DNA from: Candidatus Binatia bacterium
GTDB taxonomy: Bacteria; Desulfobacterota; Binatia; Bin18
Direction: 5' to 3'
DNA: 64,000 nucleotides
NCBI GenBank assembly: GCA_963664395.2
Contig: OY761159.2
Coordinates: 4,608,001-4,672,000, forward strand
Shown here: positions 1 through 36,138 of the stretch, piece by piece
Position numbering within the stretch: position 1 is the stretch's first letter
Layout: the number at the start of each line of letters is the position of its first letter
Translations under genes and position numbers: made by a program
The notes under the pieces: model-generated
What the model saw: the letters and a program-made list of their open reading frames with translations, nothing else
What the model was told of the DNA's origin: nothing
Database searches by the model: none

Positions 1-1
1 C

Positions 2-1027: not shown

Positions 1028-1037
1028 GGCCGAGCCT

Positions 1038-4000
1038 ATGAGATCAGCCCCTTTTCGCCCCTTGGTCCCTGGCCTTTGGGCCGGCGTCTGGAGTCGTGAC
1101 CGGAGCTGCGCGGTCGTGCTGTTGATGCTGCTGGCCGTCCGGGGGCTGTGCCCGGCGGCCGGGCTGGCTGCTGAGCGCAGCCCGGAGCCCCAAGCTGCGG
1201 TCACGAATCTCTCTCCACCGTCGCAGTACGACACGGACGGCGACGGGCTGATTGAAATTTCGACCCTGAAGCAGCTCGATGCCATGCGGCATGACCTGGA
1301 CGGCGACGGGCGCCCGACGACCGCCGGGGAGGCAGCGTATCGCCTGGCGTTTACCGCCTTGCCGGCGGACATGCAATTGCATTGCGACGGCGGGTGCAAG
1401 GGATATGAACTGCTGGAGGACTTTGATTTCGACACCGATGACAGTGGCGCGCCCAATGCGGACGACGCCTACTGGGCCGACGGGGCCGGCTGGCAGCCCA
1501 TCGGGGGGAACAGCAACGAATTCCGTACGATCTTCGAGGGCAACGGCCACACGATCCGGAATCTGTTCATCAATCGGCCTGCGAAGGATCGGGTCGGCTT
1601 GTTCGGCCAGATCACCGGCACGTCGACCCACATCCGCCGTGTCGGCCTGATCAATGTCGATGTGACGGGCAAGGCATATGTCGGCGGGCTGGTCGGGCGT
1701 CAAACTGACGGCCACATCACGGACTGCTATGTCACCGGACAGGTATCGGGCAAATCGGCAGTCGGCGGGCTGGTCGGGTATCTCGATAGCGAGGGTGGCA
1801 GCATCACGGCCAGCTATGCCACCGTACAGGTCCGGGTCTCGAGAGATCGTAACTACGGGGGTGGCCACGCGGGCGGGCTGGTCGGGGCGAGTCATGGCGT
1901 CATCACGGCCAGCTATGCCACCGGGCAGGTGTCGGGCTCGATCCATGTGGGCGGGCTGGCCGGAATAACTTTCAGAAAAGCGTCCGGGCGTCCCGCCAGC
2001 ATCAGGTCCGACTATGCCACGGGCCCCGTCCGGGGCGGCCTATATACCGGGGGACTGATCGGGACGGCGTCTAATTCCAGTTCCAGTGTCCGGGACAGCT
2101 ACTGGGACACGGAGACCTCGGGACGGACGAACAGCTCCCGGAACAGCTCCCGGGGCACGGGGAAGACCACCGCCGCGTTGCAGACGCCCACGGGCTCCCA
2201 GGGCATTTATGCGAACTGGTCCAGACCCTGGTCCGGCAGCGCCGGCTGGCTCAGCGAGCCGCCGTGGGACTTCGGCACAAGCGCCCAGTATCCGGCGCTG
2301 AAGGCGGACCTGAATGGGGACGGCACGAAGACCTGGCAGGAGTTCGGCCATCAACTCCGGGAACGCCCTACCCTGACGGCCACCGTGACCGACGCCGGGG
2401 TGGTGTTGCGCTGGGAGGGCGTAGTGACGACCCATTGGACGCCGGCGCCGGTCGTGACCTACACGGTCTATCGCGAACGCGGTTCGAGCGTGGAGACGAT
2501 TGCTACGGGTCTGAGCGCGGCGACCGTCACCGACACCGAGGTGCGGGCCGGGACGACCTACGCCTATCAGGTCGCCGCGGTAGTGGACGGGGGCGAGGCG
2601 GTTCGGAGCGCCCGGCGGACGGTCACCATTCCGCAGAAGGGGGTGCGGCTGAGCACGACCGGCCCGCTGGAGACCACTGAGGCAGGCACGACCGCGCGCT
2701 TTACGGTGGTGCTGACCGCCCCGCCCACGGCGGACGTCACCGTGGCGATAGAGAGTAGCGATCCCAGCGAAGGCCGGGTGACCCCGGCGGAGTTGTCGTT
2801 CACCCCGGCCACTTGGGAGACGGCGCAAGCGGTGACGGTGACGGGGGAGGACGACACCGGGGTGGACGGGGAGCAGGTCTACACCGTCACGTTCACGCTG
2901 ACGAGCGCGGATACGGACTATGCCGGGCTGGCGGTCCCGCCCGTTCAGGTCCGCAACCGGGATAACGATCTCCCGCAGAACAGTCCGGCGACCGGCGCGC
3001 CGACGGTCTCCGGGCCGGCGACGGCGGGGCAGACGCTGAGCGCGTCAACGAGTGCCCTCGCCGACCCCAACGGGCTGACGCAGAGCGTGTTCACCTATCA
3101 GTGGATTGGTGTGGACGGGGGCATGGAGCAGCCCATTCTGAGGGCGACCGGCAGCACGTACACGCTGGGGGCGGCTGATGTGGGCCGGCAGCTCAAGGTG
3201 CGGGTGCGCTTCACCGATGATGAGGGCTTCTCGGAGGAGCGGACGAGTGCCGCCTATCCGCCGGATGGGACGGTGCAGGTGCAGGCGGCCGTTGTTCCTG
3301 ACCCCGGCACCACGGGCGGGCGGGCGGGCGGCGGCGGCGGCGGTTCCAGCCAGGACGAGCACGGCAACACCCCGGCCCAGGCAACCCTCGTCACCCTGGA
3401 CCGCACCCGGACCGCATCCGTGCCGGGGCGGCTCAACACGGCCGCCGACGTGGATTACTTCAGCGCAGACGTGCCCCACGCCGGGGTGTTGGTCGTCGAG
3501 ACGAGTGGGCCGACCGCCACCATGGGCACGGTGTGGCAAGCCGGAGAGGAGTTAGCCACCGCCGACAGTGGCGGGGTCGGGCAGAACTTCCGGCTCAGTG
3601 TGCGGGTCGCCCCGGGGTCGGTCGTGATAGCCGTGGCGGGCAACGGGCAGCAGACCGGGGCGTACACCCTGCAAGTGACCTTCCTGCCGGGGTATCTGGA
3701 GAATCCGGGAGCGGCGTCCTTCCAGAGTGGGATTGGCGTCATCTCGGGCTGGGTGTGTGACGCCGACGAAGTAGAGATTGTGTTGAACGGGGAGCCGCAG
3801 GAGGCGGCGTATGGCACGGCACGGCTCGATACGGAGGCGGTGTGCGGCGACAGCCGACAACGGCTTTGGCCTGTTGTTCAACTGGAACCTGCTGGGCGAC
3901 GGGGAACATGAGGTGGTGGCCCTGGTCGATGGGGTCGAACTCGACCGGGCGACCGTGACGGTCACGACGCTGGGCGCCGAGTTTCTGCGAGACGTGACGG

Positions 4001-22975: not shown

Positions 22976-23890
22976 TTACTCAACATGTTTCCAGGCGTGG
23001 TAGGAACTGCGTACCAGCGGGCCGGATTCGACATGGCGAAAGCCCAGATGCAGGGCCTCTTCGCGTAAGGCTTTGAACTCGTCCGGATGGACGTAGCGTT
23101 CGACCGGGAGCTGTTCCTTCGACGGTTGGAGATATTGCCCGAGCGTCAGGATATCGCACTCAATCGCTCGCAGGTCACCAAAGACGGTCAGGAGTTCTTC
23201 ATAGGTCTCGCCAAGACCGAGCATGATGCCGGTCTTGGTTTTCAGATTCGAGCGGACGGCTTTGGCTTTCTCCAGAACACGTAAGGAGCGCTCGTACTTC
23301 GCCCCCGGGCGCACCCGTTTGTACAGACGCGGCACACTCTCGGTGTTGTGATTGAAAATAGTGATCGGCGATTCGGCAACAGTGACAACCGCACTTTCAT
23401 TGCCCTGAAAATCGGGGGTCAGGACTTCAATCGCACAGTCGGGATTCAGGTCTTTGATCGCGTTCACGGTCTCGGCAAAATGTTTTGCTCCACCGTCCGG
23501 CAGGTCGTCTCTGTTTACAGACGTGACGACAATATGCGAGAGGTTCATCTTGCGGGCCGCCTCAGCCACGCGGCGGGGCTCTCCGGGGTCGAGAGCCACC
23601 ATGCGACCGTGACTGACCGCACAGAACCGGCAGTTACGGGTACACACGTCACCCATGAGCATGAACGTGGCGGTGCCATGTCCCCAGCATTCAGCAATAT
23701 TGGGACACTGGGCTTCCTGGCACACCGTGTTGAGCTTGAACGTCGAAACAATGGCCCTTGTCTGCGTATAGCCTGGGCCACTCGGCATGCGGACTTTAAT
23801 CCAGTCCGGATGCCGACGCTTTACCGGGCGGCTGCCGTGTGTTCCATTGGATGAGGCTTGAGAGCTGGCGTCTGCAGGCTGGTGTTCCAT
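22976..23890 (-). CDS. lipA: Lipoyl synthase
   Basis: CQEAQCPNIAEC, CTRNCRFC, GQYLQPS, PLVRSSY. Confidence 0.97.
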   Translation of the reverse strand: MEHQPADASSQASSNGTHGSRPVKRRHPDWIKVRMPSGPGYTQTRAIVSTFKLNTVCQEAQCPNIAECWGHGTATFMLMGDVCTRNCRFCAVSHGRMVALDPGEPRRVAEAARKMNLSHIVVTSVNRDDLPDGGAKHFAETVNAIKDLNPDCAIEVLTPDFQGNESAVVTVAESPITIFNHNTESVPRLYKRVRPGAKYERSLRVLEKAKAVRSNLKTKTGIMLGLGETYEELLTVFGDLRAIECDILTLGQYLQPSKEQLPVERYVHPDEFKALREEALHLGFRHVESGPLVRSSYHAWKHVE

Positions 23891-24513
23891 ACAATCTCCT
23901 GATGACCAAATGTTCGAGCAAGGCTTCGTACAACAGTCGCTTTCACTGTATTGAGCGAGATTTCTTCCTGCAACAATTGCTGCATGGATGTCATGCGCAC
24001 GCCCGGCAGTCCGCACGGGATAATAGCCGAGAAATACGACAGGTCAGGATTGACGTTCAAGGCAAAGCCATGAAACGTCACCCAGCGGCGGACGCCAATT
24101 CCGATCGAAGCGATTTTTTCGGTTCCCACCCATACGCCAGTGAGGCCGTCTCTCCGCGTGGCCACAATGTCCCATTCGGCCAGCGTTGTTATTAAGACGT
24201 CTTCAAGCCGGCGCAGATAGCGGTGGACATCTTTGCCGTGTTGTTTCAGGTCCAGAATAGGATAGCCAACCAATTGGCCAGGTCCATGGAAGGTGACCTC
24301 CCCGCCGCGACCGACTCGATGGACCGGCACCTGACCAGGGTCGAGCAGATATTTTTCGTCTCCCCCACGGCCTAACGTAAACACCGGAGGATGTTCGAGA
24401 AGGAGCAGGCTGTCCGGTATCTCATCAGCGTAGCGTCGCGCGACCAGGGTCTGCTGCACTGTCAACGCGCGAGCATAGTCCATCAAACCAAGGTCAGCAT
24501 GTAAAAGTTTCAT
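23821..24513 (-). CDS. lipB: Octanoyltransferase
   Basis: LLEHPPVFTLGR, RGGEVTFHGPGQLVGYP, KIASIG, HGFALN, PCG. Confidence 0.96.
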   Translation of the reverse strand: MKLLHADLGLMDYARALTVQQTLVARRYADEIPDSLLLLEHPPVFTLGRGGDEKYLLDPGQVPVHRVGRGGEVTFHGPGQLVGYPILDLKQHGKDVHRYLRRLEDVLITTLAEWDIVATRRDGLTGVWVGTEKIASIGIGVRRWVTFHGFALNVNPDLSYFSAIIPCGLPGVRMTSMQQLLQEEISLNTVKATVVRSLARTFGHQEIVWNTSLQTPALKPHPMEHTAAAR

Positions 24514-24533
24514 GACACCAGTTCTCAGGCCGG

Positions 24534-25925
24534 CTAGAAATTAATGCCCCGCCCTTCGGCATCTAATGCGGCTTCCATAATCGCTTCAGACAGTGTCGGA
24601 TGGGCATGGACGGTTTCGCTCAACTCGGCGGTGGTTGCTTCCAGCGTTCGAGCCAGACAGACCTCGGCAATGAGGTCTGTCGCACCGCGCCCGACGATGT
24701 GACAGCCCAGGATCTCACCATATTCTTTCTCAACCACCAGCTTGACCATCCCTTCGTCATGTCCGGAAGCGAGCGCCTTGCCCAGCGCGCGGAACGGGAA
24801 GCGCCCGACTTTGACTTCATAGCCCTGCGCCTGGGCCTGCTCTTCGCTCAGCCCAAAGACCGCCACTTGCGGCTGACAATAAATACAGGCCGGGATGCGG
24901 GACGCATCCCGCCCTTTCTCCCGTTCGCCGGTCATGTATTCAACCGAGGCAATACCTTCTTCTGAGGCGGCATGAGCCAAGAGCGGTGGCCCATTTACAT
25001 CCCCGATCGCATAGATTGCGGTATTGGCGGTTTGCATTTGCGCGTTGACCTGCACATAACCGCGCTCAATCTCTACGCCGGCCTCTTCAAGACCAAGGTC
25101 AGCGCTAATAGGAGCCCGACCGACAGCCACCAGGACTTTATTGGCCGTGCGTTCCTTGAAGGTACCGGCGCTATCCAGGTTGACCTCGACCCGGCCCGGA
25201 TATTTTTCCAGACTGTGAAACATCGTCTGTGTCAGGATCTCGATTCCCTTTCTCTTAAATGAGCGTTCCAGCTCCTGCACGATTTCACTATCGACCCCAG
25301 GCAGGAGTTGCTTTTCCATTTCAACAATCGTCACCCGGCAGCCAAACGTGCTGTAGATATAGGCGAACTCCACACCAATCGCACCGCCGCCGATTATGAC
25401 AATGGATTCGGGGATGGCTTGCTCCGTTAATGCCTCATAACTGGTTAAGACCTGCTTGCCATCGACTTCAAGTCCGGGCAGCGTCCGCTCGCGCGAACCG
25501 GTGGCAATCACAATACGCTCGGCTTCAACCTGCTGCGCCTCCTGACCACTGGCTTCAATCACCACGCGATTTTTAGCCTCAAGCCTGCCCGCCCCCTTGA
25601 AGAGGGGCACCTTGTTCTTTTTGAGCAGGTATTCCACCCCTTTGGCCAATCGGCCGGCAACCTGGCGCGAACGCTTGATGACCTGGGGATAATCAAAAGA
25701 CAGCCCACTCACCTTAATGCCATAGCGCTCGCCCTGTTTGAGGTCTTCATACATCTCGGCTGAGGTCAGAATGGCTTTAGACGGAATACAGCCCCAGTTC
25801 AGGCACACCCCACCAGGCTGATCTTTCTCCACTACTGCGACGCTCAGGCCAAGCTGGGCGGCCCGAATGGCGGCCACATAACCTCCCGGGCCTGCTCCAA
25901 TCACCACCAAGTCGTATCGTTCCAT
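24534..25925 (-). CDS. lpdA: Dihydrolipoyl dehydrogenase (E3)
   Basis: GAGPGGY, GGVCLNWGCIPSK, HAHPTLSE. Confidence 0.97.
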   Translation of the reverse strand: MERYDLVVIGAGPGGYVAAIRAAQLGLSVAVVEKDQPGGVCLNWGCIPSKAILTSAEMYEDLKQGERYGIKVSGLSFDYPQVIKRSRQVAGRLAKGVEYLLKKNKVPLFKGAGRLEAKNRVVIEASGQEAQQVEAERIVIATGSRERTLPGLEVDGKQVLTSYEALTEQAIPESIVIIGGGAIGVEFAYIYSTFGCRVTIVEMEKQLLPGVDSEIVQELERSFKRKGIEILTQTMFHSLEKYPGRVEVNLDSAGTFKERTANKVLVAVGRAPISADLGLEEAGVEIERGYVQVNAQMQTANTAIYAIGDVNGPPLLAHAASEEGIASVEYMTGEREKGRDASRIPACIYCQPQVAVFGLSEEQAQAQGYEVKVGRFPFRALGKALASGHDEGMVKLVVEKEYGEILGCHIVGRGATDLIAEVCLARTLEATTAELSETVHAHPTLSEAIMEAALDAEGRGINF

Positions 25926-25934
25926 AGCTGTCCT

Positions 25935-27194
25935 TTACACCATTAAGCCGACCGGGTTTTCGAGTAAATTCTTCAGTTCTTCGAGAAATTGGGCAGCGGT
26001 CGCCCCATCCAATACCCGATGATCGCACGACAGCGTTGCCATCATCGTCCGAGAGATGACCATCTGCCCGTCTCTGACCGCCGGGCGCTCTTTAATAGCA
26101 CTGGTCGCCAGAATCGCCGCCTGGGGAGGATTAATCACCGCCGTAAAGTGTTCCACAGGATACATGCCCAAGTTGGAAATGGTAAAGGTACCTCCAGATA
26201 AATCTTTCGTCGTCGGCTTGCCTGCCCGCGCCCGTTCCACCAGCCCATTTGCCTGGGCGGCGATGTCAAGCAGCGACATCGCCTGACAGCCGTGCAGCAC
26301 TGGTACAATCAACCCATCATCAAGGGCAACCGCAATACCGATATTGATCTCAGCCTTGAGTTCTCGCCCGTTACCGCTAAAAGACGCATTCAGCCGTGGA
26401 TGTCGCCCCAACGCAACCGCGACTGCCTTGACCAATAAATGGGTATAGGTCACCTCGGCGGCAATCCGGTCACTCAGTTTCAGCGAAGTCCGCAGCCGAA
26501 CGGCCTCAGACATATCAATCTCAGTGGTGACATAAAAATGCGGCGCCTCACGCATGCTGGCAGCCATGCGTTTGGCAATAGTCGCCCGCATCCGAGAGAA
26601 CGGCTCCACCGTTCCGGTCGGCGTGACGACTGCCGGCTGAGGCTCCGATTGAGCCGCTACCGTCACAGCCAAAGCCTCGGCGCCTTCAAGGTCTTGCTTA
26701 ATAATCCGGCCGCCCGGTCCACTTCCCCGGACACTGGCGAGTTCAATGCTACGCTCTGCCGCGATTTTCTTGACAATGGGCGAAGCTAAAATCCGTTCGC
26801 CCTTTTTTCGAGCGGGCGGCTTCTTTTTCGGGGTGGCTTCACGGATTTTCCGTACTTTCTTCGCTGCCGGCGGGTCCGCTTTTTGGTCAGACCTTTTCTC
26901 TGAAGGTGGAGTTGATGCAGTTGCTGTTCGTGGCGGTGGAGCAACCCCGACTTCAACCTCTTCTCCTAACAGGGCCAGCACGGTTCCAACCGGGACAGAC
27001 TCGCCCTCTTGAACGCGAATCTCAGTGAGAAAGCCTTCGTCCAAGGCTTCCATTTCCATGTCAGCCTTATCGGTTTCCACCTCAGCGATAATATCGCCGA
27101 CCTCAACCTGCTCCCCGACTTTTTTGAGCCACTTGAGGATTTTCCCTTCCTCCATGGTGTCGCTCATGCGGGGCATGATAACTTCAGTCGCCAT
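25935..27194 (-). CDS. pdhC: Dihydrolipoamide acyltransferase (E2, pyruvate dehydrogenase type)
   Basis: Lipoyl domain ETDKA, E3-binding ASP..GSGPGGRI, catalytic DHRVLDG. Confidence 0.9.
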   Translation of the reverse strand: MATEVIMPRMSDTMEEGKILKWLKKVGEQVEVGDIIAEVETDKADMEMEALDEGFLTEIRVQEGESVPVGTVLALLGEEVEVGVAPPPRTATASTPPSEKRSDQKADPPAAKKVRKIREATPKKKPPARKKGERILASPIVKKIAAERSIELASVRGSGPGGRIIKQDLEGAEALAVTVAAQSEPQPAVVTPTGTVEPFSRMRATIAKRMAASMREAPHFYVTTEIDMSEAVRLRTSLKLSDRIAAEVTYTHLLVKAVAVALGRHPRLNASFSGNGRELKAEINIGIAVALDDGLIVPVLHGCQAMSLLDIAAQANGLVERARAGKPTTKDLSGGTFTISNLGMYPVEHFTAVINPPQAAILATSAIKERPAVRDGQMVISRTMMATLSCDHRVLDGATAAQFLEELKNLLENPVGLMV

Positions 27195-27215: not shown

Positions 27216-27944
27216 TCAGTATAGCAGAGGGAACGGTTGGAAGTGAGCCAGAACGCCGGAACAAACGCCGAGAACAAACGTCGAGAACAAACGAAATGAG
27301 CGTCGATGAGCCGGGCACGGTCCGTACTCGCGCAGGGCCTCACGATGGGCGGCGGTGCCGTAGCCCATATGGCGGGCAAAGCCGTACTGTGGATACTGCC
27401 GGTCCAGTGCAAGCATGAGCCGGTCGCGATACGTTTTCGCAATAATCGATGCCGCCGCAATGGAGTAAATATCCCGATCTCCCTTCTTAAAAGTGGACTG
27501 CGGCGTTGGATAGTCTTTCAGCACACGTCCATCTATCAGTACATGCTCGGGTCGAACCGGCAGTTGGTCCAAGGCCAGCCGCATGGCTTTTAAGCCGGCT
27601 TGGTAGATATTGATCCGATCAATCTCCCCGACCTCAACCACCCCAATGCCAATGCCCGTTGCGATCTGACGGATCTCCGGCTCAAGACGTTCCCGGGCTT
27701 TCTGCGTCAGGGTCTTGGAGTCGCGCACGCCGGCTGGGAAAGGCTCGGGAAGGCTCTGGCCTGCAAGGCTCTCGCCTGCAAGGCTCTCGCCTGCAAGGCT
27801 TGGCGGAAAAACTGCTGCTGCTGCAACCACCGGCCCGGCCAGGGGTCCCATGCCGACCTCGTCTACGCCGGCAACATGACTGAGCCCCGCTCGCCACAGC
27901 TTTTGTTCAACAACAAGTGTCGGATAGATCAGGCGGGAAGCCAC
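27216..27944 (-). CDS. rnhB: Ribonuclease HII
   Basis: AGVDEVGMGPLAGPV, RDSK, LIDG, KGD, IAAASIIAK, GYGT..H. Confidence 0.95.
   Translation of the reverse strand: MASRLIYPTLVVEQKLWRAGLSHVAGVDEVGMGPLAGPVVAAAAVFPPSLAGESLAGESLAGQSLPEPFPAGVRDSKTLTQKARERLEPEIRQIATGIGIGVVEVGEIDRINIYQAGLKAMRLALDQLPVRPEHVLIDGRVLKDYPTPQSTFKKGDRDIYSIAAASIIAKTYRDRLMLALDRQYPQYGFARHMGYGTAAHREALREYGPCPAHRRSFRLFSTFVLGVCSGVLAHFQPFPLLY
27750..27800. repeat. 15-bp tandem repeat x3.4 within rnhB (SLAGE repeats)
   Basis: aaggctctcgcctgc repeated. Confidence 0.9.
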
Positions 27945-27958
27945 GGGGGTTTCTTGCG

Positions 27959-28603
27959 CTAGACCGACGTTTCAGGCTCGTTTTGCTTACGCGCAGATAC
28001 GGCAAACATAGGATCAGAGCCGCCCGGATGAGGACTCCAGTCTTCAAAGACGGCTGTATCGTATCCGCCCACCTGCCGGAAATACGCTTCGATTAGCTCG
28101 GCCCGGCCCGTATCTCTCAGCGTTTGCCACAGGCGAATGGCTTTGGTTGGGAACATCCGGTTGGAGTACAGCACAAGAAAGGGACAGCCGGGCTTCAGCA
28201 CGCGATTCACTTCAGTGAAAATTTCGACCGGGCGGGTCATATATTGAATCGAGACTGCCACCACCACACCGTCAAAATAGGCGTCAGAAAATGGGAGCTG
28301 CGGGTCTACGTTGAGGTTGTGGACGACATATTCATCCAGGTCCGGGTTATCCGCCATCTCCTCGGCGTTGAGCCCGAGTCCGATACATTTTTGCTTCACA
28401 AATCCTTCGGGCAGATGCGAACGCCAACTGCTCATGAGATCCAAAAAGACACCGTTCGGAGTAAACGTCTGGGCGATACACCGCCCGGCTGCAGCAATCG
28501 CTCCGGCGTCAATATGCACGAGTTTGCGCGGAACAGTATAAAAGAGCGCATCATCGTTTTCGTCGAGCCGCTCGAACATGTCCGGGGTCAAACGCTGGTC
28601 CAT
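27959..28603 (-). CDS. Class I SAM-dependent methyltransferase
   Basis: DDALFY..PR..HID, LDLMSSW.SHLP, GLGLN.EE, FDGV...VSIQY, RVLKPG. Confidence 0.85.
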   Translation of the reverse strand: MDQRLTPDMFERLDENDDALFYTVPRKLVHIDAGAIAAAGRCIAQTFTPNGVFLDLMSSWRSHLPEGFVKQKCIGLGLNAEEMADNPDLDEYVVHNLNVDPQLPFSDAYFDGVVVAVSIQYMTRPVEIFTEVNRVLKPGCPFLVLYSNRMFPTKAIRLWQTLRDTGRAELIEAYFRQVGGYDTAVFEDWSPHPGGSDPMFAVSARKQNEPETSV

Positions 28604-28625
28604 GGCGTGTCGGCAGGGCAGAGCC

Positions 28626-29402
28626 TTACTGAAAAAACGCGGCTAGATGCGTCACAGTTTCTTCCGGTTTTTCAAACGGCGGCGCGTGGCCACAGTCGGG
28701 AATCATGGCCAATTGCGAACCTTCAATCCCCTCATGATAGGCACGCCCGTGGGCGAGCGGTATCAGCCGGTCAGATTCGCCCCAGATAATCAGGGTTGGA
28801 ACGGTCACCCGATACAATCGGCTACGCAGCTTTGGGTTGCATAAATGTGGATTCCAGCCCACCCGCGCCGTTGCTTCGCGCGCGCGCATGACGTTTTCAA
28901 GGACTTCTTGGCTTGGTTTGTCAGGGATAAAACTCCGGGCGAGTTCCGACTCCGGATCATGGAAGACTAAGCGGCGTGTTTCCTGTGTATTTGCCGCAAA
29001 AATATCCTCCATTGGGGAGCCGGGTACGCGCAGCCCGGCCGGATTAATCAAGGCGAGCTTTTTCAGGCGATTGCTATAGCGAGTCGCTAATTCGGCGGCT
29101 AACCAACCCCCGAGAGAGAGACCGACCACATAGGGCTGATCGAGCCCTATGTGGTCCATCAAATCCGTATAGTGAAAGACCAAGTCTTCTATGGTGTCTA
29201 TTTGATCCAGCCCTTCAGATTGGCTAAAGCCTGGATGTCCTGGCACATACACGCTGTAATGCTGCGCAAGCTGCTCGAAAAAAGGCAGCCAGACCACCTC
29301 TCCCCCAGCACTATGGAGATACAGAAGTGGGTCTCCGGACCCCCCACTGAGCATTTGGGTCTTCTTGCCACGAATATCAAGAAACTCTTCCCGGAAGGCC
29401 AT
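28626..29402 (-). CDS. Alpha/beta hydrolase
   Basis: HPGFSQS, GLSLGG nucleophile elbow, WGESD, CGH. Confidence 0.9.
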   Translation of the reverse strand: MAFREEFLDIRGKKTQMLSGGSGDPLLYLHSAGGEVVWLPFFEQLAQHYSVYVPGHPGFSQSEGLDQIDTIEDLVFHYTDLMDHIGLDQPYVVGLSLGGWLAAELATRYSNRLKKLALINPAGLRVPGSPMEDIFAANTQETRRLVFHDPESELARSFIPDKPSQEVLENVMRAREATARVGWNPHLCNPKLRSRLYRVTVPTLIIWGESDRLIPLAHGRAYHEGIEGSQLAMIPDCGHAPPFEKPEETVTHLAAFFQ

Positions 29403-29474
29403 AATCTCTCCCTTTTTCGGTCACAGTCCTGTCAGTCAATGCGCTCCCCGTGTACCACATCCCCGGCAGCTTGC

Positions 29475-30380
29475 CTAGCGATTTTGAGCGGGACGGATGA
29501 CTGCCAATGCCTGAGGAATCGCCCGCAGCGTGACCGGCAGAGAGCCCAGGCGCTCGCCGTCGGCGTAAACATCGCCCGGGATTTCCGAACGGATATTTAT
29601 TTCTCTCCCGCGCAGACTCTCAATGCCGGTCAGGTAGACGTGGCTGCCGTTAAAAACGCGCGGAAAGGCCCGCAGCAATAGTTCCCACTTGCCCATCCCG
29701 TGCGCCATACAGGCGTCCAGGATACCATCGTCAACTCGGGCGGCGGGCACGAGTTGCATGCCCCGCCCCGAACTTCCCAGGTTGCCGACAGCAATGAGCC
29801 AGCTATAGCAGCGCTGCTCATGACCATCGCAGGTAATAGTGAACGTCTGCGGAGAGGAAAGAAAGACTGAGAGAACTGTCAACAACGAATAGACGGCGTT
29901 GAAGCGCAAGCGGCCCAACAGGTTTGCCCGGCGGTTAATCTCCGCCGCGAGGCCGACCAGGGCAATAGACAAGAAATAGCGCTCATCCGCCTGCCCAACG
30001 TCAATACGGGGGGCGGGCTGGGCAGCGTACGCGCCATATTGAGCGATCAGCTCACACGCCTCGGTCAGGCGCAGCGGGATACCCAAGCCGCGCGCAATGT
30101 CGTTTCCGCGTCCGGCCGGAATGATGCCCAAAGTCGTATGAGTCCCGACCAGGCTATTTGCTACCGCATGTAGTAAGCCGTCGCCGCCCACTCCGACCAC
30201 CAGAGCGCAGCCATCTACGACTGCCTGATGGGCCAATACGCCGGGATCAGTGGGCGAGCTGCTGTACAGCACTTCGTGTTGTAATCCAAGACGCTGAAGC
30301 TCCAGGCTGGCCTGGTGGGCAATCGCAGCTCCCTGTCCTCCACCCGCAGTTGGATTGACAATAAGGCGTGGGGCGGACAT
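29475..30380 (-). CDS. Diacylglycerol/sphingosine kinase family (YegS/Rv2252/BmrU) lipid kinase
   Basis: VNPTAGGG, GGDG, IPAGRGNDIARGLG, DDGILD, YADGE motifs. Confidence 0.92.
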   Translation of the reverse strand: MSAPRLIVNPTAGGGQGAAIAHQASLELQRLGLQHEVLYSSSPTDPGVLAHQAVVDGCALVVGVGGDGLLHAVANSLVGTHTTLGIIPAGRGNDIARGLGIPLRLTEACELIAQYGAYAAQPAPRIDVGQADERYFLSIALVGLAAEINRRANLLGRLRFNAVYSLLTVLSVFLSSPQTFTITCDGHEQRCYSWLIAVGNLGSSGRGMQLVPAARVDDGILDACMAHGMGKWELLLRAFPRVFNGSHVYLTGIESLRGREINIRSEIPGDVYADGERLGSLPVTLRAIPQALAVIRPAQNR

Positions 30381-30394
30381 CCGGTTTCTCGCCT

Positions 30395-31705
30395 TTACTC
30401 GCTCGACCGGAGCCCGCCGCGCTCAAGGTGCGCCTGCACAAAATTTCGACTCCCGTCCGCGGCCATACTGGCTGAGGCAGAGAGTTCGAGGCACAGAGCC
30501 GTGGCCGCGATGATTTGTGCAAACCGATATACCTTGCCCTCTCCCAAACAGTCCAGCAGTTGCAGATATGAGCGCGCATGGGGCAGACTCGTCCCCCCAC
30601 CGAGCGTGCCAACTTCCAGCCCGGCAAACCGAATAGAGAGGTGCAGTCCGGCACTGCCAGGACTGGCCGTCACCTGGGCCATACTGCTTGTTCCAACCAT
30701 GCCCAGGTCCTGACCTGTCGCAGCAAAAATAGCCGCTATGGCTGAGGCTGGAGTAAACGCAAAAGATTGCATTCCACTCGCGTGTGCGCCGTGCAGTCCG
30801 GCATGTTCCAAGGCGAGGATGTCAGCCGCCTCAATGCGTAAAACGCGCCGGAGGACGGCATTCGGCAGCGTCGTCTCGGCATGAACAACCTTGCCATGCC
30901 CAGGAAACTGGAAAAATGCATGACTCGGTTTTTTATCGCCCCCCATATTGGCTTCGAGAAATATACGCAGCGGCGTCATACCCGACTCTGCTGAGAAACG
31001 CTCGCTGATATAGGCATGATTCAACGCATAGGCGTTGCGCGTTATCATATTGGGCCCACAGGCATCGCCCGTTGTAAAACGGTATAATACGTGACACATG
31101 GGTCCGACCACATGGGTCTGCACCTCATGCAGCACCGCATGCCGACTGAGCAAAAGGCCTGTATCTGAGGGCAAGGAACGGGCCGGACCTTTGAGCCAGG
31201 CAGCCATGTCAGCGGCATGAGCTGCTACCCACTGAGACAGGGCGAGGGCCTCTTGCGTAGAAGAAAACACAAAGCACGAGTCTCGTGTCATCCGGTCGGC
31301 CAGCACGTGAGTGCGGACTCCACCCGCAAGCGCCACGGCAGTCACTCCGCGTTGAAGTGAGGCTGAGAGTCCGCCTTCGGTATGGGCCAGAGGAACGAAG
31401 ACCTGCTCTTCTTGTCGGCCACGCTCGTGCAGGTGTCCCTGTGGGTCAAGTTCGTATTGTCCCCAGTTCAACGCCAGCGGTCCAACGACACCGACAGGCA
31501 ATGTCATCCGGCCAGTCAAACACTCTTGGAAAGGGGCCAGCGCATCGAGTGGGCCGTCTAACACGTGCTGGTATTCATCCCCCCAGTGCGCCAGTGTCCG
31601 CAGGCGTTCTTGGCGTTCTGCAATCCCTTGGGGAGTATTCCCCCGCGGCCAACGTGGGAAACGAGAAGCGGAGGCGCTTGTATCGGGCTGGCGCGGCCCA
31701 TTCAT
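30395..31705 (-). CDS. Divergent class I HMG-CoA reductase-like oxidoreductase
   Basis: PVGVVGPL, VPLAHTEGGL, MTR, TGDACGPNM, NMGGDKK, ATGQD, VGTLGGGT, C-terminal FVQAH. Confidence 0.85.
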   Translation of the reverse strand: MNGPRQPDTSASASRFPRWPRGNTPQGIAERQERLRTLAHWGDEYQHVLDGPLDALAPFQECLTGRMTLPVGVVGPLALNWGQYELDPQGHLHERGRQEEQVFVPLAHTEGGLSASLQRGVTAVALAGGVRTHVLADRMTRDSCFVFSSTQEALALSQWVAAHAADMAAWLKGPARSLPSDTGLLLSRHAVLHEVQTHVVGPMCHVLYRFTTGDACGPNMITRNAYALNHAYISERFSAESGMTPLRIFLEANMGGDKKPSHAFFQFPGHGKVVHAETTLPNAVLRRVLRIEAADILALEHAGLHGAHASGMQSFAFTPASAIAAIFAATGQDLGMVGTSSMAQVTASPGSAGLHLSIRFAGLEVGTLGGGTSLPHARSYLQLLDCLGEGKVYRFAQIIAATALCLELSASASMAADGSRNFVQAHLERGGLRSSE

Positions 31706-32481
31706 TCTTCTGCCGGCCCTTCTGCCAACTCTTCTGTTTTATGGAGGTGGAGACGCCGGGCCTTGTTCTCAATGTCTCGCTTCACCTTGCCAAACAAAGT
31801 CTGCCCATCAATGCCGATCAGGAGCGCCTCGGATTTAAGCGCCGTATACATCGCCTCCATAAGCCGTAACAATTCGTCCCGCATCTTGAGAAAGACAGGG
31901 CCGAACTGGGGTTCACGTTCCAACGCCGCTCGTAAGTAGAGTTCAGCAAACGCGAGATGGCGGGCCTCATCTTGCACGATACGGCTCGCAATAGAGGCAA
32001 AGAGAGAATCGGGGTGGGCTTTTACCAAAATGCTGTAGAAATGGCGGGCAAGAATATCGCTGAGGAGTATCCCCCACAGCCATTCAACCCGATCTCGCGA
32101 TTTGAACAATCGCGCCTGATAGCGGAACATATCTTTGAGCTGACGGACTTCAAGCGGGCGCTGATTCAGAGTGTTATAGAATCGAGTCAATATATCGAAA
32201 TGCCGGGCTTCGTCCAAAAGAAAGGTCGAGAGATAGAGTTGGGCTTCTGTCTCATGGGCGGCAAAACACTGCGGGATGGTCGAGCTGGCACCGATCATAG
32301 CCGTTTGCTCCCCCAGATAGATGGGGGTCAGCACCATAGCTAAAGCGCGCTGTTCGTGACGGTCGAGGGACAACGGCTGCGTCCAGTCAATTTCAGCCGC
32401 TGACCACTGGCCCTCAACGCCCTTCCGAAACAGGTCCATGAGCTTGGCGTTCTCGATGCGGGGAAAAACCCGAATCACCAT
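31702..32481 (-). CDS. Ferritin-like diiron protein (R2lox/AurF-like)
   Basis: QW...IDW, GEQTA, two DEARH motifs. GGAGAGG RBS; stop overlaps the start of the reductase-like gene. Confidence 0.85.
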   Translation of the reverse strand: MVIRVFPRIENAKLMDLFRKGVEGQWSAAEIDWTQPLSLDRHEQRALAMVLTPIYLGEQTAMIGASSTIPQCFAAHETEAQLYLSTFLLDEARHFDILTRFYNTLNQRPLEVRQLKDMFRYQARLFKSRDRVEWLWGILLSDILARHFYSILVKAHPDSLFASIASRIVQDEARHLAFAELYLRAALEREPQFGPVFLKMRDELLRLMEAMYTALKSEALLIGIDGQTLFGKVKRDIENKARRLHLHKTEELAEGPAEE

Positions 32482-32653
32482 CCCCAACCCCTCTCCATTG
32501 CCTGACGTGAGGCAGCACCATAGCAACCCCTCCCCTAGTACTCAAGTAAACGCCTGAGCAGGAAGTTTGGTATTCGATATCGCCGCGTGCGTCCGACAGG
32601 TATCGGAACGGCAGATATAAACGATTTCTCAATGTGGTTTTGGCAATACAGCC

Positions 32654-34123
32654 CTACAGCGGCTTCGCTACACACTCGGCAAACACCGCCTCAGCTGCGG
32701 CTTCTCCACTCCGCACGCAGTCGGCAAGACCAACGCCGCGATAGGCGTTGCCGGCAAGCGCCAGACCTGGATGCTCGGCCACCCGTTTTTCAATCTCACC
32801 AACGAGCTGAAGATGGCCGACGCGATACTGCGGCATGGAGCGCGGATAGCGGGCAATGCGGGTCAGGAGGGGTTCGGCTTCAATCCCAAGCAACTGTTGC
32901 AGTTCACTGCGTACCAGAGCGCGGATTTCAGCATCATCGCGCTCAAACAGCTCCGCCTGAAGTGCGCCACCAACAAACGTTCGTAACAGGGCATGATCGC
33001 TCGGAGATCGTCCGGAATATTTCACGCTCGAAAAAGTCCCGGCAATAATCGAACGCCGCTCCACTCGTGGCACCACAAAACCAAAACCGTTCAGCGGATG
33101 GGGAATCTGGTCCCGACGATAGGCCATATTCACCGTTGCTGCGGAGCTGTAGGTGATGCAGGAGAGTTGCTGACTCAAGGACCGATCAAGCGCGCACACA
33201 AGATGCGCCGCAGCAAAGGCTGGCGTCGCCAGCACGAGGCCATCGGCCTGGAGGGTTGAGCCGTCGTCACATTCTACGTTCCAGCGTGAGCCGTTCGCGT
33301 TTTCAGGCTGATAGCGGACACTCGTCGCAGGACAACTCTGGCGAATGGTTCCTGATGAGAGCCGTTCGGTTAGGACAGAAACGAGGCGCTGCATTCCGGT
33401 TTGCAGGGTCACAAACAAACTCCAGCGCGCCCCACTCGTTCCCTTGGCCGTCTGAGGATTACGGCGAGCTGCCCGCCAGAGCGCATAAATCACGCTCCGA
33501 TAGTCACGCTCCATTTGAAGAAAACGAGGCATGGTCGCAGCAAGGCTGAGTTGGTCGGGGTCAGCCGTATATATGCCGCCGATTAGGGGTTGAGCAATGC
33601 GTTCGAGCGCTTCTCGGCCAAGGCGACGGCGTACAAACGAGCCAAGGCTCTCATCCGCTTGTTCCGACGCCCGGGGCAGGAGCAGGTCGAGCGCCATGCG
33701 AAATTTCCCCGACCAGGAAAAAATACGGGATTGGATCAAAGGACCAAGCTGGGTGGGCGCTAATAGCATGAACCCCTGCGGCAGTGGCTCAAGCCTCCCC
33801 TTGTGCACCACAAATGTGGCCCGATGCGCGTTGTTAGTGCCCATCAGTTCGGGCTCAAGACCAAGACGGCGACACAGGGCCAAGGCCCAAGGTTTTTCCG
33901 AAATAAATGAGTCCGGGCCGAGTTCAAGCAGAAAATCGTCTCGCTGCTCTGTTGCAATGACTCCGCCTAGCCGATCGCTGGATTCAAGCACTGTAAATCG
34001 AAGCGGCTGATCACGCTCCCGGCTTAATTCTTCGAGTTTGTACGCAGCGGCCAGACCGGTAATACCACCACCAACGATCACAATATGGAGAACCGGACTG
34101 CTGTCCGATGGAGAAAGAGACAT
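32654..34123 (-). CDS. hemY: Protoporphyrinogen/coproporphyrinogen oxidase (HemY family)
   Basis: GGGITGLAAA, ELGPDSF, GIYTADP..LS, GFGFVVP, MPQY.VGH, GVGLADC. Confidence 0.93.
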   Translation of the reverse strand: MSLSPSDSSPVLHIVIVGGGITGLAAAYKLEELSRERDQPLRFTVLESSDRLGGVIATEQRDDFLLELGPDSFISEKPWALALCRRLGLEPELMGTNNAHRATFVVHKGRLEPLPQGFMLLAPTQLGPLIQSRIFSWSGKFRMALDLLLPRASEQADESLGSFVRRRLGREALERIAQPLIGGIYTADPDQLSLAATMPRFLQMERDYRSVIYALWRAARRNPQTAKGTSGARWSLFVTLQTGMQRLVSVLTERLSSGTIRQSCPATSVRYQPENANGSRWNVECDDGSTLQADGLVLATPAFAAAHLVCALDRSLSQQLSCITYSSAATVNMAYRRDQIPHPLNGFGFVVPRVERRSIIAGTFSSVKYSGRSPSDHALLRTFVGGALQAELFERDDAEIRALVRSELQQLLGIEAEPLLTRIARYPRSMPQYRVGHLQLVGEIEKRVAEHPGLALAGNAYRGVGLADCVRSGEAAAEAVFAECVAKPL

Positions 34124-34142
34124 GCGCGGAAGTTTCTACAGC

Positions 34143-35075
34143 CTATTGATTCAGGGTTGATTGGACCACCTCAGCTATCATCTGAATAAAAATTGGATGA
34201 TCGTTGACGGTCCGGGCACGGATCATATTGAGTCCGTTCCGTTCGGCAATCTCCTTCGCTTCCGTATCCAGATCATATAGAACTTCGATATGGTCACACA
34301 CGAATCCAATAGGCACGACGACCACATCTTGAGTTCCCTGCGCAGCCAGGCTCTTGAGCACATCGCCGATATCCGGCTCCAGCCACGGCGCTTGGGGTGG
34401 GCCGCTCCGACTTTGATAGGCAACACACCAGTTTTCGAGTCCAATGCGCTCGGCGACTAAGCGTGCGCCTTCTTCGACTTGTCGGACGTAGGCGGCGGAG
34501 GCTTGGGTACTGGGCATGGCCGTCGGTATACTGTGCGCGGTAAATACCAAAGGCGTTGCAGCACGGCGGTCTGCCGGGATATGCGAAAACGCCTGCTTTG
34601 TCAGATCGGCAACCGCGTGAATGAATAAGGGGTGATTATGCCAGCCAGGGGTGAAGGTAACGTGGGGAGCAAGAGACCCTACAGTTTCTCTCGCCTCTTC
34701 CACATTCGTCTTATACCGCTCCCAGCCGGCCTCGCTTTGCTGAGCGGAAAGAATGAAGCCAACGGCATTTTTCACTCCATCCTTCCCCATCTGTTCCAGA
34801 GTCTCGCCTATATAGGGATGCCAGTTTCGCATGCCAACATACACCGGCAGTTGGGGACCTTCTTGCGCCAAGAGGCGTCGGAGTGCCTGCGCTTGTCGAA
34901 AGGTGATCTCGTTCAAAGGCGAGCGTCCGTCAAAAAGCTCGTAGTGTCGGACGACTTCTTGCAGTCGGGCTGGCGGCACCGGACGACCGCGCAGGACATT
35001 TGCCAAAAAGGGCCGCACGTCATCCATTTTCTCCGGCCCGCCAAAGGCGATCAGCAAAACTGCATCGTATTGCAT
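34143..35075 (-). CDS. hemH: Ferrochelatase (HemH/CpfC)
   Basis: FGGPE, SPLN, GMRNWHP, FTAHSIP, YQSRSG...WLEPD, GFVCDHIEVLYDLD. Confidence 0.95.
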   Translation of the reverse strand: MQYDAVLLIAFGGPEKMDDVRPFLANVLRGRPVPPARLQEVVRHYELFDGRSPLNEITFRQAQALRRLLAQEGPQLPVYVGMRNWHPYIGETLEQMGKDGVKNAVGFILSAQQSEAGWERYKTNVEEARETVGSLAPHVTFTPGWHNHPLFIHAVADLTKQAFSHIPADRRAATPLVFTAHSIPTAMPSTQASAAYVRQVEEGARLVAERIGLENWCVAYQSRSGPPQAPWLEPDIGDVLKSLAAQGTQDVVVVPIGFVCDHIEVLYDLDTEAKEIAERNGLNMIRARTVNDHPIFIQMIAEVVQSTLNQ

Positions 35076-35103
35076 ATGAAGTAAAGCGTAAAATCTGACC
35101 CGT

Positions 35104-36138
35104 TCACGTTTCACGGCTAGAGAGCTCGTGCACCATGTCGACCAGCGCAATCACATTATCAACTGGAGTTTGCGGCAAAATTCCGTGACCCAGGTTGAAG
35201 ATGTGCCCTGCCCTGCCCTTGGCCTCGTCCAGGATACGTTGCACTTGCTTGCGTAGTTCATCCAGTGGAGCAAAAAGAGCCAATGGATCAAGATTCCCCT
35301 GCACTGCCCGATCTGCACCGATCCGCCGCCACGCGGCCTCAAGATCAACCCGCCAGTCTACACCAATCACATCCCCGCCCGCTTCGGCCAGAAGCTCCAG
35401 CAGGCCGGCTGTTCCCGTACCAAAATGGATGAGAGGGATGCCCGGCGTAATCCCTTGGACGAGCGTCTGCATATGGGGCAACAAATAGGTTCGATAGTCC
35501 TGGGGGGCCAGACAGCCTACCCATGAGTCAAAGAGCTGAATGGCCTGCGCACCTGCGGTAATCTGGCCATTCACATAGGCGGTGATCACACGAACCAGAT
35601 GCTCCATGAGCGCGTTCCAGGCAGCCGGCTCCTGGTACATGAGGCGCTTGGTTTCCAGATACTGACGTGACGCTCCGCCCTCAATCAAATACGACGCGAG
35701 GGTGAAAGGCGCGCCTGAGAAACCGATCAAGGGGATGTGACTCGGTAAGCCACGGCGAATCTGCCGGACTGCCTCAAACACAAAAGGGACCGACTCTCCC
35801 GGCGGAACCTCTCTAAGAGAGTCAATATCTTTTCCTGAACGAACAGGACGGTGGATGACCGGCCCATCACCTTGGGCAAACTCCAGCCCAACGCCCATTG
35901 GCTCAATAACGAGGAGGATATCGGAAAAAAGAATGGCCGCATCCACGCCGAGGCGTTCAACCGCTTCGATCGTCACTTGCGCGGCTAAATCGGGGGTCTT
36001 GCACAATGCGAGAAACGGGACGCGTTCGCGTAACGCCCGATATTCGGCCATATACCGCCCAGCCTGTCGCATGAGCCATACGGGGGTATGCGGGGTCGGC
36101 TCCCCCCGGCAGGCACGTAGAAAAACCGGCGTCTCCAT
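35104..36138 (-). CDS. hemE: Uroporphyrinogen decarboxylase
   Basis: PVWLMRQAGRY, FSDIL, GAPFTLASY, FDSW, QGNLDP, NLGHG. Confidence 0.97.
   Translation of the reverse strand: METPVFLRACRGEPTPHTPVWLMRQAGRYMAEYRALRERVPFLALCKTPDLAAQVTIEAVERLGVDAAILFSDILLVIEPMGVGLEFAQGDGPVIHRPVRSGKDIDSLREVPPGESVPFVFEAVRQIRRGLPSHIPLIGFSGAPFTLASYLIEGGASRQYLETKRLMYQEPAAWNALMEHLVRVITAYVNGQITAGAQAIQLFDSWVGCLAPQDYRTYLLPHMQTLVQGITPGIPLIHFGTGTAGLLELLAEAGGDVIGVDWRVDLEAAWRRIGADRAVQGNLDPLALFAPLDELRKQVQRILDEAKGRAGHIFNLGHGILPQTPVDNVIALVDMVHELSSRET

Follow-up and report, generated by a model that had tools for sequence, protein, structure and literature searches.

What does an enzyme with the fold of 3-hydroxy-3-methylglutaryl-CoA (HMG-CoA) reductase (HMGR) do when its gene stands between those of a ferritin-like protein and a lipid kinase? 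The question is raised by three consecutive genes of Candidatus Binatia bacterium (assembly GCA_963664395.2), which lie within a stretch of 64,000 nucleotides, here called the window (contig OY761159.2, positions 4,608,001 to 4,672,000), and which encode, in order of reading, a putative di-metal oxidase of ferritin-like fold, the reductase and the kinase (together, the trio; Table 1). An earlier note on this DNA had offered two readings, a mini-pathway in which an acyl-CoA is oxidized, reduced to an alcohol and phosphorylated, and a non-canonical mevalonate-like route. The current analysis points to a separate subclade of the fatty acyl-CoA reductase FcrA. In six bacterial lineages or more this subclade appears to be tied to a lipid kinase and to a di-metal protein predicted to activate O2. 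The linkage, together with the frequent fusion of related FcrA-like proteins to a kinase, points to products of a class for which the literature searched describes no bacterial pathway: long-chain alcohols that are phosphorylated and perhaps hydroxylated.

The reductase and its kinship with FcrA

The trio reductase is the only gene with a PF00368 (HMG-CoA_red) match in the genome (252.9 bits by Pfam), yet it reaches only 181.4 bits on the NCBIfam HMGR equivalog TIGR00533, for which the cut-off is 441.8. The earlier note had described a preserved catalytic set together with altered substrate and cofactor motifs (ECLTG, DACGPN, HTEG), and both observations are borne out. The translation holds HTEGG, DKK, GQD and the C-terminal His as well as ECLTG and DACGPN, and in HMMER alignments E110, K258, D333 and H426 fall on the catalytic positions of class I HMGRs of solved structure. 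Relative to its kin, the subclade of the trio reductase carries ExLTG / AH(T/S)EGG / GDACGPN at the positions where other FcrA-like proteins have ENYIG / ATTEGA / GDAAGQN and one canonical-like protein has ENPIG / ATTEGA / GDAMGMN.

The substrate pocket is changed in a way that has a precedent. FcrA is an HMGR-derived enzyme that uses NADPH to reduce acyl-CoAs of C14 and longer to alcohols, and that neither reduces HMG-CoA nor is inhibited by simvastatin (Grossi et al., ISME J 2025, PMC11948995). Its members, among them the assayed Pb-FcrA of Ca. Promineifilum breve and a protein of Natronomonas pharaonis, keep the catalytic tetrad but have an acidic residue in place of Ser684 of the HMG-binding pocket, a small or variable one where the pocket Lys stands and a bulky aromatic instead of Leu862 (PMC11948995). 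In the trio reductase all three HMG-binding residues of human HMGR (Ser684, Lys735 and Leu862) are replaced, namely by Glu251, Ala302 and Phe422 (HMMER and MAFFT columns), so that the FcrA pattern of an acidic residue, a non-lysine and a bulky aromatic beside a kept tetrad is present as E / A / F. These residue criteria are taken from PMC11948995, which prints the pocket lysine as 'Lys795'; the lysine of the aligned 'NKN' is Lys735 by count of the HMMER alignment. Only 59 residues precede the core of the trio reductase and there is no N-terminal Lad (long-chain alkyl carrier) domain, a domain that occurs in only 'certain FcrA' and is hence not obligatory (PMC11948995). Given this signature the trio reductase is very probably a fatty acyl-CoA reductase of the FcrA type, and the suggestion that it represents an undescribed kind of enzyme has to be given up, since the signature is that of an enzyme published in 2025 (PMC11948995).

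The same pattern is widespread in the family. In a MAFFT alignment of 123 full-length representatives most rows show the FcrA residues; an aromatic is missing at the third position in four rows (P0284, P0339, P0301 and P0344), with a gap in P0254, and an acidic residue is missing at the first position in nine. A single row, P0339 (Ser/Ser/Leu), retains two of the three pocket residues of human HMGR.

Within this family the trio reductase appears, from its sequence, to form a separate subclade with motifs of its own. Scores in the library clustered at 50% identity drop from 526 bits for the nearest cluster (59% identity) to about 190 bits for the next group (35-40%). In a tree of 122 representatives computed with FastTree, a quick method, it falls into a 12-row clade (support 100, stem 0.79) nested in a 111-row group of FcrA-signature proteins (support 99); P0339 is the one canonical-like outgroup of this tree, and the characterized Pb-FcrA and N. 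pharaonis FcrA are not among its rows. The trio reductase scores about 190 bits against FcrA-like representatives versus 121 bits against the archaeal HMGR 6HR7. A search for a canonical outgroup among plasmid-borne HMGR-family matches returned further FcrA-like proteins or odd contexts and none that was canonical. Two orphan HMGR-family genes lie on plasmids, one on pBGP9 of Alteromonas macleodii (L170), where its neighbors encode an AMP-binding protein, an 'iron-containing redox enzyme family protein' and a short-chain dehydrogenase/reductase, and one on a Sinorhizobium medicae plasmid (L171), between acyl-CoA carboxylase subunits.

The alternative that the trio reductase is a true but divergent HMGR in a cryptic mevalonate-like pathway draws on the PF00368 fold and the complete catalytic tetrad, and is contradicted by the replaced HMG-binding residues, by the score under the NCBIfam equivalog cut-off and by the gene content of the genome (95.93% complete, 5.37% contamination). 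The earlier note had observed no HMG-CoA synthase or mevalonate kinase nearby and had suggested a check of the genome for these genes and for those of the methylerythritol phosphate (MEP) pathway. Neither enzyme is found by Pfam in the window or by profile search in the whole genome: for HMG-CoA synthase there is no match to PF01154, and TIGR01835 peaks at 45 bits (cut-off 360); for mevalonate kinase TIGR00549 gives none. Dxr, IspG and IspH of the MEP pathway are present, and IspH adjoins the module in the related loci L033, L043 and L070. As judged from gene content, then, the trio reductase is not a mevalonate-pathway enzyme, and the mevalonate-like route of the earlier note is so improbable that it can be given almost no weight.

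The likeness to FcrA thus comprises the HMGR fold, the Glu/Lys/Asp/His tetrad and the three pocket substitutions, together with a genome that is without a mevalonate pathway and has genes of the wax ester synthase/diacylglycerol acyltransferase (WS/DGAT) type. The trio reductase differs in its lack of a Lad domain, its own motifs and its separate, long-stemmed clade, and in being coupled to a di-iron protein and then to a lipid kinase, neither of which PMC11948995 mentions in its main text.

Linkage of the three genes across genomes

Gene neighborhoods were compared in two scans around relatives of the reductase, the best 80 loci of each being de-duplicated by record title to 118 unique loci. 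The ferritin-like gene is adjacent to the reductase in 59 of these and a kinase lies within 3.5 kb in 48, with all three genes together in 46. The linkage is concentrated in the 62 loci outside Gaiellales-like Actinomycetota (ferritin-like gene adjacent in 58, kinase within 3.5 kb in 48), compared with one and none, respectively, among the 56 Gaiellales-like loci. The carriers are labeled as Binatia, Methylomirabilota, Armatimonadota/CSP1-3, Dormibacterota, Chloroflexota and Bacillota, and several contigs labeled Enterobacteriaceae, Klebsiella or Deltaproteobacteria show the Binatia gene order.

Seven of the mislabeled-looking loci (L015, L017, L018, L021, L027, L031 and L066) come from metagenome-assembled genomes named 'uncultured Enterobacteriaceae' or 'Klebsiella pneumoniae' and hold a Binatia-type module at 68-79% identity. 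Their enterobacterial labels look wrong because of that module, and in L017 and L018 because of the Binatia gene order as well.

Other genes accompany the reductase in the 56 Gaiellales-like loci: a 192-aa open reading frame (ORF) in 51, one for a 4HBT thioesterase in 28 and one for a 270-aa protein in 39. This 270-aa protein and the ferritin-like protein are remotely homologous (hhalign probability 84.5%, E 7e-6, 186 columns), so that a ferritin-like partner of either kind is adjacent to the reductase in 98 of the 118 loci (the 59 loci plus the 39 with the remote homologue). This relationship surfaced only by profile-profile comparison; a search of five Gaiellales genomes with the ferritin-like profile returned matches of only 23-27 bits, in three of the five. 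The 192-aa upstream ORF was also considered as the ferritin-like partner and rejected (hhalign probability 0.2).

The phyletic pattern within the class is equally coherent. Among 201 genomes sampled from the GTDB class of the window genome, the ferritin-like oxidase occurs in 25, which are the window's own genome and all 24 others of its family, and in none of the 176 genomes from the other 19 families. The reductase clade (>700 bits) is found in 26 of the 201, and those same 26 also have a kinase orthologue (49% identity or more) that adjoins the reductase, while a further 20 genomes have kinase paralogues only (at most 39% identity, or at most 34% where most of the query is covered). That the trio is inherited as a unit, and patchily, fits an accessory function spread by transfer.

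In other phyla the module stands in a lipid-related context. The Armatimonadota-type order is IspH, a small ORF, oxidase, reductase, kinase, a gene for an unknown protein, a PlsC-type acyltransferase and cytidylate kinase; a membrane fatty-acid desaturase is encoded in Dormibacterota and Chloroflexota loci, and PlsC in three Dormibacterota loci (L097, L100 and L112). The gene-neighborhood comparison that the earlier note had called for therefore finds a three-gene unit that is conserved across phyla and co-inherited within the class, an arrangement that exceeds chance in that it recurs across phyla and follows one phyletic pattern in the class. In all likelihood the three genes work together.

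Several observations nevertheless weigh against the module reading set out below or limit it. In the ten Sulfobacillia-type Bacillota loci (within the 62) the ferritin-like gene adjoins the reductase in eight and a kinase is near it in none. A genome of another Binatia family (G341; locus L180, G341:C46:15000-27000) has a CDP-alcohol phosphatidyltransferase, the reductase and the kinase but no oxidase gene. In the light of these kinase-less and oxidase-less cases the trio is not obligatory. The reductase-adjacent kinases of other phyla are only 29-33% identical to the trio kinase and may have been recruited independently or have another role. Given the composition of the tree, with a single outgroup and no characterized FcrA, membership of the trio reductase in the FcrA clade rests on residue signature and scores. 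Finally, the enzyme activities and the product are predictions from the genes.

The two partners and a candidate lipid product

The kinase has the two-domain architecture of soluble bacterial lipid kinases (DAGK_cat 86.1 and YegS_C 120.3 bits by Pfam) with GGDG and GRGND motifs, and its best solved relatives are bacterial diacylglycerol kinases and DgkB (63-69 bits). It resembles DgkB, YegS and Rv2252 in this architecture and in the GGDG motif, but falls under all NCBIfam equivalog cut-offs (160.7 versus 302 bits, 159.8 versus 274, and 111 versus 118.65 for TIGR00147), and it is inherited with the reductase rather than as a housekeeping gene.

Coupling of such a reductase to a kinase recurs elsewhere in the FcrA-like family, in a different form. 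A C-terminal extension of at least 250 aa is present in 73 of the 122 full-length 50%-cluster representatives (the FcrA-like ones being numbered P0268-P0393), and all 73 are mutually homologous (phmmer E < 1e-5). Pfam assigns APH or EcKL, domains of small-molecule kinase fold, to eight of eight extensions tested of at least 300 aa, and found no domain in one extension of 260 aa; the HxDxxxxN catalytic-loop motif is present in 65 of the 73, and the alignment also shows conserved Lys, Glu and DWE. Larger fusions join FAAL, acyl carrier protein (ACP), reductase and kinase (P0317 and P0338), DUF3419, reductase and kinase (P0357, the DUF3419 of which we take to be BtaA-like) or involve an AfsA hotdog domain (P0385), and a 924-aa reductase-kinase fusion is encoded on a Streptomyces plasmid (L169:6425-9199). 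A diacylglycerol kinase (DAGK) gene and a gene for a weakly UbiA-like membrane protein come after a distant HMGR-family gene (PF00368 at 392 bits) in a further Binatia family (L179, G272:C41:1-12000). The words 'kinase', 'phosphotransferase', 'ferritin' and 'oxidase' have no occurrence in the main text of PMC11948995.

A second DAGK_cat kinase is encoded outside the window in the same genome (C1:1320279-1327227), together with a class I/II aminotransferase, an epimerase-family reductase, a membrane fatty-acid desaturase and two ORFs. In its make-up it presumably resembles the sphingolipid/ceramide clusters of bacteria, the kinase gene being ceramide-kinase-like.

The ferritin-like protein is less readily placed. 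Its Pfam match to AurF (28.3 bits) is under the cut-off of 29.6, while the ligand set E58, E91-x-x-H94, D142 and E172-x-x-H175 is invariant across 31 homologues. The best Foldseek matches of its AlphaFold2 (AF2) model (pLDDT 89.3) are R2lox proteins (E 5e-7 to 1e-6, TM 0.67-0.77, 15-18% identity), followed by R2 proteins of ribonucleotide reductase, with aldehyde-deformylating oxygenase (ADO) at rank 50 (TM 0.74, 21% identity). In agreement with this, the family profile matches R2lox in the PDB with 39 bits (E 5.6e-9) and cyanobacterial aldehyde decarbonylase with 33 bits (E 3e-7), the latter over positions 121-244 only, that is, the C-terminal half; a search of the ESM Atlas returned only unnamed ferritin-like clusters. 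With R2lox, represented by structures from Geobacillus, M. tuberculosis and Sulfolobus, the predicted protein shares the four-helix core and the E / ExxH / acidic / ExxH ligands. It differs in its low identity, in having Asp as third ligand, in a score of 37.5 bits against the NCBIfam R2lox cut-off of 194 and, in the HMMER alignment to 6f6c, in having Trp at the position of the cross-linked Tyr and Ala at that of Val (R2lox positions as we take them to be numbered). Because its nearest solved families are R2lox and ADO and yet it lies far below the curated R2lox cut-offs, the protein is judged, from sequence and model, to represent a new family among the lipid-binding members of the ferritin-like superfamily. 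In R2lox structures a long-chain fatty ligand is bound, and by analogy the ferritin-like protein may bind a lipid-like ligand too. The function of R2lox itself is, to our knowledge, unknown, and with the trio an R2lox-like protein would for the first time have a genomic partner, and through it a substrate that can be tested. A predicted complex of the reductase with the ferritin-like protein scored 0.00, which speaks neither for nor against binding.

Cultured carriers of the ferritin-like protein are Sulfobacillus and Sulfoacidibacillus, and a bench test is possible because Sulfobacillus species are cultured carriers of the reductase/oxidase pair. The Sulfobacillia-type homologues (P0216-P0241) end in a tail of some 50 aa, in which a Cys-x2-Cys...Cys...Cys pattern is conserved that the Binatia protein lacks.

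From these parts a three-enzyme lipid module can be proposed, to which we would give an even chance, in which a fatty acid is turned into an oxidized, phosphorylated long-chain alcohol. The FcrA-type reductase would use NADPH to convert a long-chain acyl-CoA, by way of a bound aldehyde, into a primary alcohol, with Glu, Lys, Asp and His as catalytic residues. The ferritin-like protein, taken as an oxidase of R2lox/ADO fold that activates O2 at a di-metal site (Fe/Fe or Mn/Fe), would hydroxylate or desaturate the same chain, either on the acyl-CoA before reduction or on the alcohol after it, and the DAGK/YegS-type kinase would phosphorylate the resulting lipid hydroxyl to give a phosphorylated long-chain alcohol or diol, able to enter phospholipid-type reactions. 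Action of the kinase on the reductase product, or on its oxidized or acylated derivative, is suggested by co-inheritance and by the independent kinase fusions, and could be right or wrong with similar probability. Of the oxidize, reduce and phosphorylate scheme in the earlier note, the reduce-then-phosphorylate part thus finds backing in the reductase-kinase fusions, while the order of the steps and the product (alkyl phosphate, diol phosphate or ether lipid) are, like the chain length, the role of the oxidase, the substrate of the kinase and the final lipid, what we infer. If phosphorylated fatty alcohols were formed by FcrA-kinase pairs and fusions more broadly, a doubtful but still serious possibility, they would be widespread, unrecognized lipid intermediates or carrier lipids of bacteria.

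The role of the oxidase is the least certain element: it may introduce a hydroxyl beside the functional carbon, so that a diol results, it may desaturate the chain, or it may deformylate an aldehyde. The last of these corresponds to a hydrocarbon-forming pair like that of acyl-ACP reductase (AAR) and ADO, in which the reductase would release a fatty aldehyde and the ferritin-like protein would deformylate it to an alkane. Both systems place a thioester reductase beside a ferritin-like di-iron protein that acts, or would act, on a fatty chain; the ADO similarity of the partner in profile and Foldseek searches, a precomputed PF11266 match in one of its homologues and the kinase-less gene pairs of the Sulfobacillia all speak for such an activity. 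The fold of the trio reductase is, however, unrelated to that of AAR, and none of the four residues that serve the two reductions is lost; characterized FcrA proceeds to the alcohol (PMC11948995), and co-inheritance with the kinase and the kinase fusions again point to an alcohol product, while the ADO match is partial and R2lox scores higher. The intact tetrad, the link to a kinase and the stronger match to R2lox all disfavor aldehyde deformylation, and an alkane-forming pair is accordingly rated as improbable.

A plainer view is that the reductase supplies alcohols for wax esters to two distant WS/DGAT enzymes, the oxidase and kinase being unrelated or regulatory. FcrA was characterized in wax-ester synthesis (PMC11948995), and two WS/DGAT matches in the genome (184.7 and 161.7 bits) weigh in the same direction and against the proposed module, as does the fact that no clear reductase of the FAR type was found in the genome, although the PF07993 probe is unspecific (matches in 14 of 14 control genomes). 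The WS/DGAT genes lie at C1:1272 and C1:315450, far from the trio at C1:4.64 Mb, and the former (C1:1272-2063) has an in-frame TAG. This view would also leave unaccounted for that the oxidase and kinase share the phyletic pattern of the reductase and are linked to it across phyla, and the overlap of the oxidase and reductase genes argues for coupling. Wax-ester supply is therefore considered distinctly unlikely as the function of the trio. The in-frame TAG itself could reflect a pseudogene, a sequencing error or two genes.

Ether-lipid synthesis would make more use of the partners, with the alcohol entering alkylglycerol lipids, the kinase acting on alkylglycerol or alkyl-acylglycerol, a PlsC-type enzyme acylating the product and the di-iron protein desaturating or hydroxylating the alkyl chain. 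Roles in ether-lipid formation have been proposed for FcrA, with PlsC-like genes noted in its neighborhood (PMC11948995); PlsC lies near the trio in Armatimonadota-type and Dormibacterota loci, and the CDP-alcohol phosphatidyltransferase gene of G341 is directly upstream of the reductase. In contrast, PlsC is absent from the Binatia locus, and the annotated loci contain no enzyme that would form the ether bond, of the AGPS, Ger/PlsA or ElbD type, for which the genome was not searched. We regard this function as unlikely.

A more specific form of the proposed module is the core of a route to glycerol-free phospholipids, which would be formed by hydroxylation at C2 by the di-iron enzyme, reduction of the thioester by the FcrA-type reductase to an alkane-1,2-diol, phosphorylation by the kinase to the 1-phosphate (or to a phosphorylated 2-acyl-diol) and finishing by PlsC and CDP-alcohol enzymes. 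Long-chain diol lipids have been known since 1986. The reading is suggested by analogy and fits because of the enzyme set of the trio and its PlsC and CDP-alcohol neighbors: a hydroxylase, a reductase, a kinase and PlsC are the set that would be needed for a 2-acyl-alkane-1,2-diol 1-phosphate, and the comparison with the 1,2-diol lipids of Thermomicrobium roseum is purely one of biochemistry. The route to the long-chain diol lipids of T. roseum 'remains to be clarified' (PMC2615216), and the diol reading, if true, would supply the missing biosynthesis of these lipids. Neither Thermomicrobium nor any other diol-lipid organism is among the best 80 loci of each of the two scans, and no carrier of the trio is known to make diol lipids; the diol reading is best treated as a doubtful but still serious candidate.

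As to novelty, the reductase type has been known since 2025, and the literature searched describes neither the subclade nor its di-metal partner, its link to a kinase or its product. The search for the trio, in a library of limited extent, found no description and surfaced only the FcrA paper (PMC11948995).

Layout of the locus and neighboring genes

The coordinates of the trio and its neighbors in the window are collected in Table 1. The co-oriented arrangement, the ATGA overlap and the 14-nt gap that the earlier note had reported are confirmed by the ORFs and the junction sequence, and the overlap is, on the sequence, an instance of probable translational coupling of the ferritin-like gene to the reductase.

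Table 1. Features of the trio locus and of its surroundings, in window coordinates.
Feature	Position	Strand	Remarks
Ferritin-like di-metal carboxylate gene	31702..32481	(-)	259 aa from ATG at 32481; predicted R2lox/ADO-like fold
Predicted FcrA-type HMGR-fold reductase gene	30395..31705	(-)	436 aa; no Lad domain
DAGK_cat/YegS/DgkB soluble lipid kinase gene	29475..30380	(-)	301 aa
ATGA stop/start overlap of ferritin-like gene and reductase	31702..31705	(-)	reductase ATG over preceding TGA
Spacer from reductase stop to kinase start	30381..30394	(-)	14 nt; TAA 30397-30395, kinase ATG 30380
Alpha/beta hydrolase	28626..29402	(-)	Abhydrolase_1 86.3 bits; downstream of trio
S-adenosylmethionine (SAM) methyltransferase	27959..28603	(-)	Methyltransf_11 33.5 bits; downstream of trio
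hemE, hemH, protoporphyrinogen/coproporphyrinogen-oxidase-type gene	32654-36138	(-)	in row directly upstream of trio
E2 and E3 of 2-oxoacid dehydrogenase, then lipB, lipA	22976-27194	(-)	downstream of trio

The ferritin-like ORF is open from 31702 to 32526, where a TTG stands, and the ATG at 32481 fits the 'M(V)IRVFP' start of its homologues. A scan of 27800-32800 for promoters and terminators gave counts at the level of shuffled sequence and is silent on operon boundaries. Contigs from RNA libraries of four runs labeled as metatranscriptomes, in two studies, cover all three trio genes, nearly all at 95-100% identity and one at 90-95%. Such contigs bridge the oxidase/reductase junction in two runs (X16 and X17) and the reductase/kinase junction in three (X16, X17 and X19), and they lend weak support to expression of the trio; RNA libraries may hold DNA, and a contig over two genes is not proof of one transcript. 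Runs of eight studies, one of them labeled as a sponge metagenome, hold the segment 29400-32600 or a near relative.

The earlier note had also allowed that the hydrolase and methyltransferase downstream of the trio might belong to it, a suggestion that the comparison of genomes does not support. Among the 118 loci the hydrolase is downstream in most of the Binatia type and in those of no other phylum, and the methyltransferase follows the trio in Binatia-type loci only. The hydrolase family is present in 125 of the 201 class genomes, with many paralogues, and single-copy orthologues of the methyltransferase are present in 76, of which 50 are without the trio; these tallies include two genomes flagged as unpublished, G334 (both genes) and G238 (hydrolase), and the conclusion is unchanged without them. 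Membership in a large paralogous family in the one case, and orthologues in 50 trio-less genomes in the other, indicate that the two genes are not specific to the module. In four trio-less Binatia genomes examined, the methyltransferase orthologue lies away from every gene of this locus, so that an empty insertion site is not demonstrable from these four.

An RNase HII gene likewise follows downstream, after the hydrolase and the methyltransferase (Pfam annotation of the window), and the order of hemE, hemH and the oxidase-type gene upstream of the trio is kept in close Binatia relatives. The listed lipA ORF (22976-24016) overlaps lipB (23821-24513) by about 195 nt, because of which the true start of lipA is probably further downstream. 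At the far end of the window, positions 1-4000 have a G+C content of 65-69%, compared with 54-60% in the remainder.

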